NCBI GenBank assembly: GCA_009699705.1
Contig: WLNQ01000003.1
Coordinates: forward strand, 1 to 39,370
Reading direction: 5' to 3'
Length of the DNA: 39,370 nt
Source: Actinomycetota bacterium
Lineage (GTDB): Bacteria > Actinomycetota > Actinomycetes > S36-B12
A model generated the notes under the pieces. It searched no databases and was not told where the DNA came from. It worked only from the letters and a program-made list of their open reading frames with translations. Position numbers and translations under genes: made by a program. The number at the start of each line of letters is the position of its first letter. The stretch's first letter is position 1. Shown here piece by piece: positions 27,995-31,644 of this stretch.

Positions 27995-28906
27995 GTGACC
28001 ACGGAATCAGAAACGAATCTCAATGGCGTTCCCGGCCAGGAGCAGGCCTCGCCTCACGAGCAGGCCTCGCCTACGGGACTTGAAAGAAGGCGCGGGCTTA
28101 CGGGCACTCGCGCAAACGGTCACTTAGCCTTGCTCCGCTTTCTCATGACGCGCCCCACGTGTGATCGGATTGCCCAATACGCAGTCGTGAAAATGATGGG
28201 TAAATACGGGTGTCGGGCCGCCTCTATAAGTTTGTTCGACATATCTGGAGCACTACACGTTGTCGGCTCCTACGGGGTGCCTCATCAAAGTTTGGCACCA
28301 TACGAAAGCCTTTCACTTTGGGACAGTTCTCCCATGAGCGACGCAGTGATCACTGGTGAACCGATAATCATGCTGACTGCTGATGAAGTGCGTAATGCCT
28401 ATCCCTGGCTCGGTCCCCAATCTGATTTACCTTACGAGCCGATGGTGGTCTGGCCGCTGGCTTTGCCGCATGAGACTGTCGGTGCTGTCCAATTCATCCT
28501 CGCTGAAGAGCCTGTTGACCTTAACTCCATCCGGACTCAAGCCACGGTGATCGCTACCTCCCTTGCCCTGTATTTGAGCCTGCTTGGCGCAACGGGTTCA
28601 CTCGACAATCAGCTTGTGTTTCAAAATGCTGATCATGACGCAACTCTTCCTGCGGACACCGGCCTGCAATTCCCCCAGGTGATTAGTGGTTTTCATCCGA
28701 ACTCAAAACAGCAGTCATTAACGGCTCGTCAAATCTCTGTTCTCAAACTGATTGCTGAAGGCCATACCAATGCTGATATTGCCGACGAAATCGGATTTAG
28801 CGTTTCAACTGTGCGGCACGAAACGATGGCGCTCTACAGATTCTTTGGTGTGGGCGGTCGCGAGGGCGCGGTGCGCGTGGCCAAAGCTCGAGGGATTCTG
28901 CATTAA
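27995..28906 (+). CDS. GAF-domain LuxR-family transcriptional regulator
   Basis: GAF-like N-half (SPMSDAVITGEP, WPL....TVGA); LTARQISVLKLIAEGHTNADIADEIGFSVSTV LuxR HTH; GGAG RBS. Confidence 0.87.
   Translation: MTTESETNLNGVPGQEQASPHEQASPTGLERRRGLTGTRANGHLALLRFLMTRPTCDRIAQYAVVKMMGKYGCRAASISLFDISGALHVVGSYGVPHQSLAPYESLSLWDSSPMSDAVITGEPIIMLTADEVRNAYPWLGPQSDLPYEPMVVWPLALPHETVGAVQFILAEEPVDLNSIRTQATVIATSLALYLSLLGATGSLDNQLVFQNADHDATLPADTGLQFPQVISGFHPNSKQQSLTARQISVLKLIAEGHTNADIADEIGFSVSTVRHETMALYRFFGVGGREGAVRVAKARGILH
28040..28072 (+). repeat. In-frame duplication, 15-nt unit at 18-nt period
   Basis: GAGCAGGCCTCGCCT at 28040 and 28058 (EQASP twice). Confidence 0.85.
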
Positions 28907-29058
28907 TTCCTTAGCCTGTCAATTAACAAATATGACCGCGGACATGAATGGTCCAGTGTCTGTCATTGTCGTCTAACGACCATGTTCACCTTGCATAGCA
29001 ACATCTTTTCTTTAGAGAGTTAGCGAGTAAGCAACGACTCAACTACAAGGGAGATCTC

Positions 29059-30228
29059 ATGCCCAATGAAATAATTAGTTACGACTCCCCGCATTCCCCG
29101 AAGAAAGGCCTTTCTCGCAAGGCTGGCATGACGGCAGTGTTGGGGTTTGCGATGGCAACGAGTGCCTTCGCATTTACTACTACCTCGGCCAGCGCGAGCG
29201 ACAATAATGGCCCACAATGGTCAGGAAGTAGCAACATCCAGTCATCGTCCAGTTGCCACAAAGTCGATGGTAAAAACGACGGGACTTGGGATATCGAGTG
29301 GACAGTTGTAAACGGCTGGAGCACGCCAGCAACTTCTCAAAATTCAACCCCATCAGGTGTCGTGCCCGATGCAACAGTTTTTGGGGGACCCAATCTGGAT
29401 GGCAGAACTCAGAAGTTCACACAGAATGTTCCAGGGGGAATAGACAAGCATTACCCGCTTTCTGTCGAGCTTAAAGCCACCCTGACTCCGCAAGATTCTG
29501 TCAAAAACGACTCCGTTCAGAACAATTATGTTAAGAAATTAAGCGGAGAGGAACATATCGACGATACTTGCCCTACGCCTGTCCAGGCCGTCACCTTGAC
29601 CTGCTCGGCTGGTTTGTCAATCAATCTGAGTAACTACCCAAGTAACGTCTCAGTTGGGAAGAAGCCCCCTGTGATAAATAGCGTGTCCGCTACTATCGAT
29701 GGCAAAGATTGGCCGCTACCTAACACCCCCAATGCTCCCAATGATTTTGGAGTTGCTTTCGGCCCTTACTCGACTGGACAATTGACACCTCAATATGGCA
29801 GTCACAGCGCTACGGTGACAGTCAAATCGACAGACAGTCATGATGAATATTCATTCGTTCGTCAGCTTTCAATTGATTGCCCAGCTCCTGTGACCAACAC
29901 CGTCACCGTTCCTGGTGCAAATACAACTACAACAGTTACCGTTCCTGGACCAACCGTCACGGTTTCTGCATCACCTGCACCAACGGTGACTGCAGTTCCA
30001 ATCGCAATTGTTCCAGCACCTGCTACATCACCAATTGCAGAGCCAGTACCAATTTCTCTCACTCCAGAAGCAGGTACAGCTCCAACATCAGTGAACGCCG
30101 GTGGCGGCTCATCCGCACCTGATTCAACTCTGCCATTGTGGGCAGTTGCGCTTCTTGCAACTGGTGCACTCGGAGCAGCAGGAGCAGGCGCTCGCCTTGC
30201 TACTTCTCGCAAGGACTCACAGGAATAG
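29059..30228 (+). CDS. Secreted cell-surface protein, probable class F sortase substrate
   Basis: Sec signal ending ASA, four Cys, Pro/Thr/Val stalk, PTSVNAGGG + hydrophobic helix + RK tail; AAGGGAG RBS; 23 nt upstream of the sortase. Confidence 0.8.
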   Translation: MPNEIISYDSPHSPKKGLSRKAGMTAVLGFAMATSAFAFTTTSASASDNNGPQWSGSSNIQSSSSCHKVDGKNDGTWDIEWTVVNGWSTPATSQNSTPSGVVPDATVFGGPNLDGRTQKFTQNVPGGIDKHYPLSVELKATLTPQDSVKNDSVQNNYVKKLSGEEHIDDTCPTPVQAVTLTCSAGLSINLSNYPSNVSVGKKPPVINSVSATIDGKDWPLPNTPNAPNDFGVAFGPYSTGQLTPQYGSHSATVTVKSTDSHDEYSFVRQLSIDCPAPVTNTVTVPGANTTTTVTVPGPTVTVSASPAPTVTAVPIAIVPAPATSPIAEPVPISLTPEAGTAPTSVNAGGGSSAPDSTLPLWAVALLATGALGAAGAGARLATSRKDSQE

Positions 30229-30251
30229 AAACCCCATCTAGGTAAAACACC

Positions 30252-30908
30252 ATGAATACGCGGCCCCGTCCTGCAGTAGTCCTGCTCGCAGTGAGCATCT
30301 TGATGCTCATCACAGCAGTGATTGCAATCGCAGTGGCGGGGTCGCGCATGGGCGGCGAAAACATCGACTCCATCGGTGATCGCGTTGCGGCCCAATCCCC
30401 TAGCGCCGATCCGTCTCCTACTGGCCCATCGCCAGTTGAGCCCACCGTGCTTCCCAATCCCGTTAGGGTTCGCATCCCTCAGATCGGTGTTACCGCCCCG
30501 GTCATTCCCACTGGTCTCGATAAGAATCGGTCCGCGGTGATCCCAGAAGACATAATGAAAGTCGGTTGGTACAAGCTCGGGGTTGCTCCGGGTAGTAGCC
30601 AAGGCTCCGCGGTTTTGATTGCCCACCGAGACGGGCGTGAGCAAGGCCATGGGGCGTTTTACAGCATCGGAGCACTGACCTTGGGTGATCGCATCATCGT
30701 GACCAATAGCGTCGGTGAACGATTGAAGTACAAAGTCGTCGCTCGTGAAATGATTCCAAAAGAAAAACTGCCGACGCAAGAACTCTTTGCCATTGATGGT
30801 GCCCCGCGCCTAACGCTCATAAGCTGCGGCGGCTACTACAGCAAATCCAATGGCGGATACCAGGACAACATTGTGGTGACGGCTACGCCGGTACCGGGCA
30901 CGACTTAG
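30252..30908 (+). CDS. Class F sortase
   Basis: N-terminal [40 protein letters not shown] (His, Cys, and Asn at the usual Arg position). Confidence 0.92.
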
Positions 30909-31644
30909 TCATTTGAGCAACACCTTGCTGGTCGCCAGCGCCAAGGGATGTACGGCTAGTGACGATCGGATACATGATGTTGGCTGTCAGATCCGCGTGA
31001 GACAAGCCCATGATGTGGCCTAGTTCGTGAAGGTAAAGGCTCTTGATCTTGTTCGGAGACTTCACTGCATCGGCTTGCACATGGTCGGTGCGAAAGACTG
31101 CGTTTCCGGCGACGATCTCCTTGGTAGCAATGTTCACTTTGGAAGGTGCGGCAAAGCCGAAGATTGATGGGGTCAGCATGGCAGCTTCACCGATCTTCAA
31201 GAAGGTGAGGTAGATGTGACGGTCGCGCACTGGGCTGCCATCTACTGGTGTGAGCGCGTAGTTCGCATCTGAGTAGTTCACTGCTGTTTCGCCGTCGTAC
31301 TTGAAAGTTAAGCCAGACGCTGCAGTCCAACTGCTGAAGGCCCAGGTCAGTTGCTTCACGGCAAGGGCCCCTTGAGTTGGGCTGAGTTCCCTGGAATCCA
31401 TGCTCCAGGTGATGGGGGCGCCACATTGGCTCCACCCGCCATTGAGTAGCGAAGCATCTTGATTATGGAAGATCGACTTGAAGTCAGTGGCCACCGTGCT
31501 GCTTGCGGCTTGCGGTGCCACTCGTACCCAAGCAGCGCTCTGGGTCGAGTTTTGTGCCCCTGATGCGAGCCCAAGTGAAGAAGCCGCGAGTACGCCTGCG
31601 GCAAGAAATGATCCAACTGTGTGGGCAGTCAAATGAATCCTCAT
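30883..31644 (-). CDS. Secreted matrixin-like (metzincin) zinc metalloprotease
   Basis: Signal peptide, [16 protein letters not shown] (HExxHxxGxxH), IMYP Met-turn, GD..G; AAGGAG RBS. Confidence 0.88.

Follow-up and report, generated by a model that had tools for sequence, protein, structure and literature searches.

Of the sortase classes found in actinobacteria, class F is the largest; the characterisation of the Propionibacterium acnes class F enzyme is reportedly the work of Di Girolamo in 2019. Excerpts of two papers present that enzyme, which uses LPXTG, as the only characterised member of the class (PMC8225981, PMC11231552), and excerpts of two others, from a literature reaching to 2026, describe the physiological roles of class F sortases as unknown (PMC13251363, PMC6998099). 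Another actinobacterial wall-sorting system with membrane-anchored sortases is that of class E, as in SrtE1/E2 of Streptomyces coelicolor, which keeps a catalytic Arg and serves many substrates with LAXTG signals. Collagen-repeat proteins on a sortase signal are represented by the streptococcal proteins Scl1 and Scl2, which are collagen-like and LPXTG-anchored. Here we analyse a four-gene locus beside a tRNA-Lys gene in a window of 39,370 nucleotides (nt), contig WLNQ01000003.1 of assembly GCA_009699705.1, from an Actinomycetota bacterium of lineage S36-B12. The genes encode a GAF-LuxR transcription regulator, a secreted protein (hereafter the cargo), a class F-like sortase, and a secreted matrixin (Table 1). 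We give slightly more than an even chance to the reading that they jointly form a self-contained, horizontally variable display module, in which the sortase, with a predicted His-Cys-Asn active site, would serve one cargo, the regulator would bind palindromes, and the matrixin would cut the cargo stalk.

An earlier note on this DNA had placed the four genes next to tRNA-Lys, with a 26-nt convergent overlap between matrixin and sortase. All four open reading frames (ORFs) are found where it placed them, and the overlap (30883-30908) is confirmed. Cargo and sortase fit one operon, because only 23 nt lie between the two genes. The spacers, which the note had called AT-richer than in the core region, measure 254, 152, and 238 nt and have guanine plus cytosine (GC) contents of 50%, 43%, and 42%, the whole window standing at 54%; these values are ordinary for intergenic DNA. 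The module as a whole has a GC content of 52.6%.

The cargo opens with a signal peptide, followed by two β-sandwich domains (residues 59-165 and 178-274), a disordered Pro/Thr-rich stalk (about 275-339), and a C-terminal sorting signal. Residues T340, A341, P342, T343, V345, A347, G348, G350, S351, and S352 of the motif are invariant in 14 homologues. The tail has the same layout and register as the GVDTG sorting domain NF058571, in which P-x-x-G/A/S-V-x-[T/A]-G-x-G is followed by a helix and a basic tail, with Ala in place of Thr: the cargo motif reads S-V-N-A-G where the model has G-V-x-T-G. Judged by its sequence, the tail thus corresponds to the class F GVxTG tail with Thr changed to Ala. 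The P. acnes enzyme uses LPXTG, whereas the putative cognate tail of the window sortase carries V-[P/N]-A-G. The proposal that the cargo is a sortase-anchored surface protein is in keeping with this tripartite C-terminal signal, although the signal is not canonical: the last 75 residues contain no LPXTG or LAXTG motif, a point absent from the earlier note, and give no TIGR01167 match, and the tail matches no NCBIfam sorting model. To our knowledge, Thr stands at this position in every characterised sortase signal, and we know of no characterised precedent for Ala at the presumed P1 position.

Pfam and NCBIfam searches assign the cargo to no family. A search of 5.8 billion proteins returned 18 homologues at E ≤ 0.001, all unnamed and without Pfam domains. 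A function read from the fold was considered and rejected, as the model finds generic immunoglobulin-like (Ig-like) β-sandwich matches alone (Foldseek best E 1e-3, template modelling (TM) score ≤0.33; VIA-align best Z 7.7). The description of the cargo as adhesin-like therefore goes further than the model, which gives just two generic β-sandwich domains (Z ≤7.7). Between the window and the same-genus genome G006, which holds the full module, the cargo shares 53.5% identity, with the divergence in the N-terminal domains; the corresponding identities are 91% for the regulator, 74% for the sortase, 83% for the matrixin, and 77-97% for flanking genes.

The sortase matches Pfam PF04203 over its full length (1-125 of 125; 65.4 bits, cut-off 26.6). 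Class F (NCBIfam NF033748) is its best sortase class by about 100 bits, at 127.5 bits (128.2 on repeat) against 28.0 for class C. His125 (in HRDG) and Cys192 (in TLISCGG) are invariant across 15 sortase sequences, and a global MAFFT alignment with 12 class E sortases places Asn206 (GGYQDN-IVV) in the column of the catalytic Arg. This alignment decided the Arg/Asn question because the matches from a PDB profile search and from hhalign end at the catalytic Cys. Asn occupies the Arg position in all 79 relatives whose 3' end is intact. The observation of Asn for Arg is said to originate with Malik & Kim in 2019. Excerpts of two papers give it as the class F hallmark in actinobacteria (PMC8703055, PMC6998099). 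The window enzyme shares with class F the sortase fold with His and Cys, this Asn, and an actinobacterial host. It differs in belonging to a separate clade from uncultured Nanopelagicales-type genomes. The class F label given to it earlier is upheld by the best-class assignment and the Asn hallmark, with the reservation that 127.5 bits falls under the curated class F cut-off of 166 bits; we write class F-like for this reason. Close homologues in public sources are named just 'sortase' or 'LPXTG-site transpeptidase family protein'.

For comparison we took 19 bona fide class F sortases, all from published genomes and all with scores above the cut-off; five further loci, from genomes that are unpublished, were excluded. 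At the Arg position these carry Asn in 17 cases, Asp in one, and Ser in one. At 11 of the 19 loci, the protein encoded upstream has a C-terminus made up of a related motif, a helix, and a basic tail rich in Arg. Ten of the 11 tails contain V/A-x-T-G, mostly as P-x-G-G-V-x-T-G, and one ends in PPAGGGG. The latter, encoded upstream of the sortase at locus L177 (ORF 483-1085) and likewise followed by a helix and a basic tail, places an Ala-Gly tail outside the window's clade as well.

The host genome, which is 85.7% complete, contains a single sortase domain and no class E match. Its 8279 ORFs of at least 60 residues were scanned for C-terminal signals, and the cargo is the sole protein with a signal of this kind. 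The same scan found no credible L-[PA]-x-T-G protein, a loose LPXTG-like pattern hitting spurious ORFs only; the locus thus differs from class E, whose LAXTG proteins have no counterpart here. A dedicated enzyme-cargo pair is plausible, because the sole sortase of the genome is matched by the sole protein with a fitting signal.

A pair of this kind need not act on the cell wall. The enzyme might instead clip the anchor and so release the cargo, join cargo molecules to one another, or use another acceptor, which we consider quite unlikely. The substitutions of Asn for Arg and of Ala for Thr at the presumed scissile position would suit such a role, as would a cargo tail unlike all NCBIfam sorting models. 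In the excerpted sources, no class F sortase with such a tail is characterised, the function of the class is unknown (PMC13251363, PMC6998099), and a quadruple class F deletion in Actinoplanes has no phenotype (PMC13251363). What speaks for wall attachment is a resemblance: the motif, helix, and basic tail, together with the intact His and Cys, are as in wall-sorting systems.

The locus recurs. Sortase relatives were collected from one genome per species with a profile built from six closer sequences, giving 212, of which the best 80 were kept; their loci derive almost all from uncultured Nanopelagicales-type actinobacterial metagenome-assembled genomes (MAGs). We call a locus type I when it holds a homologue of the regulator and/or the matrixin, and type II when it holds a DUF4397 protein, the sortase, an ECF sigma factor, and an RskA-type anti-sigma factor. 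The best 80 of the 212 loci divide into 30 of type I, 44 of type II, and six of neither. Markers of both types occur together in none of the 80 loci; one genome (G016) holds both types. The type I matrixin gene is convergent and lies between -105 and +149 nt of the sortase stop codon in 25 of 30 loci, overlapping the sortase gene in seven of those 25. A regulator gene accompanies 22 of the 30, and the other eight have at most 2187 nt of upstream sequence. When the matrixin is taken as the starting point, 26 of its 30 best loci adjoin a sortase, one leaves no room for it, and three have a regulator without a sortase. The co-occurrence of LuxR and matrixin genes around such sortases, named in the earlier note as one check to be made, is borne out by both searches.

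A maximum-likelihood tree of 73 complete sortase sequences, for which eight of the 80 were dropped as truncated and that of the window was added, mirrors this division. A branch with 98/98 support separates 39 type II sequences from 34 rows comprising 29 of type I, four others, and L069, a doubtful type II locus whose 'sigma' match is weak and 1.4 kb off. The contigs L036, L061, L070, L071, L076, L077, and L107 are labelled Bifidobacterium breve or Rubrivirga sp.; these labels look doubtful, since the sortases of all seven nest among Nanopelagicales-type sequences in the tree.

The type II operon resembles the module: its sortases form the sister clade, its single dedicated cargo bears a tail of like kind, and a transcription regulator is encoded alongside. 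It differs in that a sigma/anti-sigma pair lies downstream, whereas the type I GAF-LuxR gene lies upstream; moreover, it has no matrixin, and its DUF4397 cargo has no Pro-rich stalk. One example (L056:3437-6526) consists of a DUF4397 protein ending in GV[PA]AGGG, a helix, and a basic tail, then the sortase, the ECF sigma factor, and the anti-sigma factor. The sigma start codon mostly overlaps the sortase stop by 4 nt in these operons.

Stalk composition follows the same division. Among proteins of at least 200 residues, the 80 residues before the motif have a median Pro content of 17% in type I (n=16), whereas the type II median (n=33) is 5%. The cargo varies from one locus to another, though always on a Pro-rich stalk in type I. 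Pfam matches among type I cargos are found for those of L040 and L045, with collagen repeats (238.8 and 155.9 bits), and of L102, a VWA/DUF5979 protein of 1222 residues; the remaining ones belong to no family. Some type I cargos thus share with Scl1/Scl2 a collagen-repeat protein on a sortase signal; they differ in sortase class and in the signal, and the window cargo itself has no collagen repeats. Two motif positions that the search pattern does not require are also conserved, namely Pro at -3 (26 of 26 type I or other tails and 36 of 36 type II tails) and Gly at +5 (25 of 26 type I or other tails). At L038:4735-5849 the reading frame of the cargo seems to be broken into two ORFs within an (ATPT)n repeat, probably through a frameshift or a MAG assembly error. 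Upstream of the regulator, L051:1323-1562, L052:4832-5116, and L065:4276-5031 each contain a putative gene whose product is built from S-I-G-S-x-x-S repeats, with a hydrophobic segment and a basic tail at its end.

The regulator has a disordered N-terminus (1-37), a GAF-fold domain (about 37-200), a linker, and a helix-turn-helix (HTH) at residues 240-296, where Pfam PF00196 (GerE/LuxR) scores 37.1 bits (cut-off 23.5). The GerE HTH is matched in all 17 aligned regulator homologues and GAF_2 in 14 of them (best E 8.1e-6); the window sequence itself gives no Pfam GAF match (PF13185 or PF01590), even at E ≤ 1. Its AlphaFold model (predicted local distance difference test, pLDDT, 75.7) superposes in Foldseek on the solved GAF domains 3ci6_B (TM 0.72, root-mean-square deviation 3.9), 3trc (0.71), and 3hcy_B (0.70), and at full length it resembles LuxR-type autoinducer receptors and CodY. 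The GAF-LuxR label is therefore correct at the level of the modelled fold, with the HTH assigned by Pfam and the GAF fold by the model and by 14 of 17 homologues. GAF-LuxR proteins are known, an example being RamA of Corynebacterium glutamicum. With LuxR receptors of the LasR/TraR type, whose N-terminal domain binds a ligand, the window regulator shares a GAF/PAS-like sensor and a C-terminal GerE HTH; it differs in having no place at the sequence level in any named family. NCBIfam assigns it to no named regulator family, NF041673 matching the HTH only.

When promoters were compared across loci, two palindromic sequences emerged, TGACYRGTCA and GGTCA-N3-TGACC. The region upstream of the matrixin carries one or more of them in 22 of 26 loci, typically with a proximal copy at about -40 to -67 and a distal copy at about -163 to -243; the region upstream of the regulator carries one or more in nine of 20. 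The matrixin and regulator promoter zones, 17.2 kb in all, contain 54 of the 59 sites, and the other 320 kb contain five. Type II loci, which in this too differ from type I, have three sites in 420 kb. In the window, the matrixin promoter carries two exact palindromes and one partial element (Table 1). Palindromic operators are usual for LuxR-type regulators, and by this analogy the neighbouring GAF-LuxR protein probably binds these sites. We know of no counterpart for the operator sequence. A repeat search in the window's own promoters and a scan for sigma-70 promoters and terminators gave nothing usable. Of 20 sequencing runs listed as containing the stretch, none is of RNA.

The module occupies 4.1 kb (27741-31882) at a tRNA-Lys hotspot and is an insertion/deletion polymorphism there, since the site is empty in two same-genus genomes (G010 and G011), full in G006, and filled with other genes in G009 and G001. 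In G010 and G011 the order is lemA, htpX, tRNA-Lys, and the 379-residue neighbour, with nothing between htpX and the tRNA; in G009 and G001 the gap holds unrelated genes. The loci compared with the window segment were L206, L207, L208, and L209, and no integrase was seen in the tRNA-Lys/htpX gap among them. A PPK2-like gene occupies the gap in one genome and a 690-residue acyltransferase-like gene in another.

Such a hotspot could bring four genes together without any functional link between them, simply as passengers of one variable islet. The empty and otherwise filled sites described above would agree with this, and close relatives inflate the co-occurrence counts. We disfavour this explanation as highly improbable: the same set surrounds sortases that share just 37-60% identity with that of the window and whose genomic surroundings differ, the partner genes change neatly from one sortase clade to the other, and the shared palindromes link two promoters.

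The matrixin matches Pfam PF00413 with 39.5 bits (cut-off 24) over profile positions 103-156 only. In an alignment of 18 sequences, H206, E207, H210, H216, the Met-turn residue M224, and the cysteines Cys74 and Cys249 are invariant. Its closest solved relatives belong to the collagenases and elastase among the matrix metalloproteinases (MMPs), the best being the catalytic domains of MMP-12 and MMP-1 (E ~7e-10). Bacterial matrixins are known, for example karilysin. With the vertebrate MMPs of MEROPS M10A the protein shares HEXXHXXGXXH, the Met-turn, and an N-terminal 'AF..W....L.F' strand. In contrast to them, neither a cysteine-switch pro-domain nor a hemopexin domain can be recognised in it, an invariant pair of cysteines lies near its two ends, and its gene is convergent to a sortase gene.

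The suggestion that this protease may process or shed the cargo draws only on gene linkage and on the correlation with Pro-rich or collagen-like stalks. The matrixin could instead be a co-regulated secreted protease for external proteins, in nutrition or matrix clearing, with the regulator, sortase, and cargo acting as proposed; we hold this to be rather unlikely. It would fit a protease family that is common and multi-copy in this bacterial family, as the profile of linked matrixins finds matches in 177 of the 390 genomes of the order, with up to seven per genome. Among lower-scoring paralogues, 17 of 20 have neither a sortase nor a regulator within 3 kb, so that the protease family extends beyond the module, to which only one of its subgroups is linked. 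Loci L131, L138, and L143 have a regulator directly convergent to a matrixin with no sortase or cargo, and such a pair of regulator and protease may be what the older core of the module consisted of. The palindromes, too, mark the matrixin promoter far more steadily than any cargo promoter. Against a purely external target stand the tight convergent matrixin beside the sortase, kept in 25 of 30 loci of a deep sortase clade, and the Pro-rich or collagen-like cargos, which occur with matrixin-linked sortases and not in the matrixin-free type II.

Under the reading of the locus as a display module, the cargo would be exported and would then stay in the membrane by means of the C-terminal helix and the basic tail behind it. 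The sortase would recognise (T)-hydrophobic-P-x-x-V-[P/N]-A-G-[D/G/E]-G-S-S and, by analogy with other sortases, cut at or beside A-G and transfer the cargo to the cell wall, so that the two β-sandwich domains would stand on the Pro/Thr-rich stalk. The GAF-LuxR protein most likely senses a small ligand and probably attaches, in dimeric form, to the TGACYRGTCA and GGTCA-N3-TGACC sites upstream of the matrixin; palindromes in its own promoter, which occur in about half of the related loci, would place display and protease secretion under one control. The MMP-like matrixin most likely trims or sheds the cargo at the Pro-rich or collagen-like stalk, which is the weakest step of the scheme. A bolder version, ligand-gated 'display and shed', would have the GAF-LuxR protein balance a V-x-A-G sortase that cuts after Ala and fixes a stalked, fast-evolving cargo to the wall against the stalk-cutting MMP-like protease that releases it; we think this version unlikely to hold as a whole.

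Besides the sub-threshold class F score, the Ala at P1, and the matrixins that stand without sortase partners, several points weigh against the display module. The window cargo tail (last 60 residues) gives no NF058571 match even at E ≤ 10 (cut-off 29 bits); none of 46 tails tested reaches that cut-off, and the sub-cut-off scores of 12.9-16.7 bits, found in six of the 46, are all from type II. The A and G of the motif core are set by the search pattern itself, and the model of the cargo has low confidence (pLDDT 59.9). A motif-bearing protein within about 5.6 kb upstream of the sortase was found at 57 of the 80 loci, and at 17 of 30 in type I. A both-strand scan gave no motif-bearing cargo at L043, L044, L047, L052, L055, L065, L067, L078, L092, L057, or L094, the last two having no upstream sequence to scan; L112 offers a degenerate candidate only and L054 spurious ORFs only. 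Five type I loci have no matrixin, one with 8 nt of contig left and four with more than 2.3 kb. The window's regulator and cargo promoters contain no exact or one-mismatch palindrome, and across the genome the palindrome occurs six times in 1.83 Mb, which is the chance level; a wider regulon is therefore not proposed, and the operator case rests for this reason on clustering and cross-locus conservation. Finally, the compared loci are mutual relatives and not independent.

The features of the locus and its neighbours are collected in Table 1. Left of the tRNA lie two conserved proteins without a Pfam or NCBIfam family. Further to the right, a secreted protein of 702 residues combines a Pro/Thr/Ala-rich N-terminal region with a C-terminal heparinase II/III domain (41.6 bits) and is 94% identical to its counterpart in G006.

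Table 1. Features of the tRNA-Lys locus and neighbouring genes (window positions; empty cells, no entry)
Feature	Position	Strand	Basis or remark
Conserved protein, 507 residues	24836-26359		no Pfam or NCBIfam family
Conserved protein, 379 residues	26478-27617		no Pfam or NCBIfam family
tRNA-Lys (anticodon ttt)	27666-27740	-	ARAGORN; left border of variable islet
GAF-LuxR transcription regulator, 303 residues	27995-28906	+	Pfam GerE; GAF fold of model
Secreted cargo protein, 389 residues	29059-30228	+	no Pfam or NCBIfam family
Sorting motif TAPTSVNAGGGSS, cargo residues 340-352	30076-30114	+	homologue invariance, motif tables
Putative sortase recognition stretch in cargo tail TAPTSVNAGGGSSAP			
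Hydrophobic helix (residues 358-378) and basic tail RLATSRKDSQE	30130-30225	+	read from sequence
Class F-like sortase, 218 residues, N-terminal membrane anchor	30252-30908	+	Pfam, NF033748
Sortase catalytic His125	30624-30626	+	
Sortase catalytic Cys192	30825-30827	+	
Sortase Asn206, in the canonical Arg position	30867-30869	+	
Secreted matrixin (M10-like metzincin), 253 residues	30883-31644	-	Pfam; alignment of 18
Matrixin zinc motif	30997-31029		HEXXHXXGXXH type
Palindrome TGACTGGTCA	31644-31653		exact; between ribosome-binding site and matrixin start codon
Partial element GGTCATTTGAC	31701-31711		imperfect; 67 nt upstream of matrixin start; position as GGTCA-N3-TGACC in relatives
Palindrome TGACCAGTCA	31828-31837		exact; 193 nt upstream of matrixin start; distal site recurs at -163 to -243
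Secreted protein with heparinase II/III domain, 702 residues	33862-35970	-	

The locus had been singled out earlier as the best candidate in the window for an undescribed system. This holds in part, in that a class F tail is already modelled (NF058571), while the LuxR/matrixin version is new. Literature searches returned no paper linking sortases with DUF4397 proteins, or with matrixins in actinobacteria, and none whose title or abstract opening presents GVDTG as a sortase signal. The new elements are a tail with Ala, a sortase clade of its own, the partnership of GAF-LuxR and matrixin, the operator, and the exchangeable stalked cargo.

Were 'display and shed' true, it would be a bacterial equivalent of matrix remodelling, and a small mobile islet would carry it together with a cargo that can be exchanged (Ig-like, collagen-like, or VWA). 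The carriers of the module are abundant uncultured freshwater actinobacteria, whose cell-surface biology is hardly known. For class F, the module provides a minimal test case, with one enzyme, one cargo with a 13-residue tail, a candidate regulator and operator, and a candidate processing protease. That a class F tail would tolerate Ala for Thr bears on the prediction of surface proteomes and on sortase-based protein ligation.

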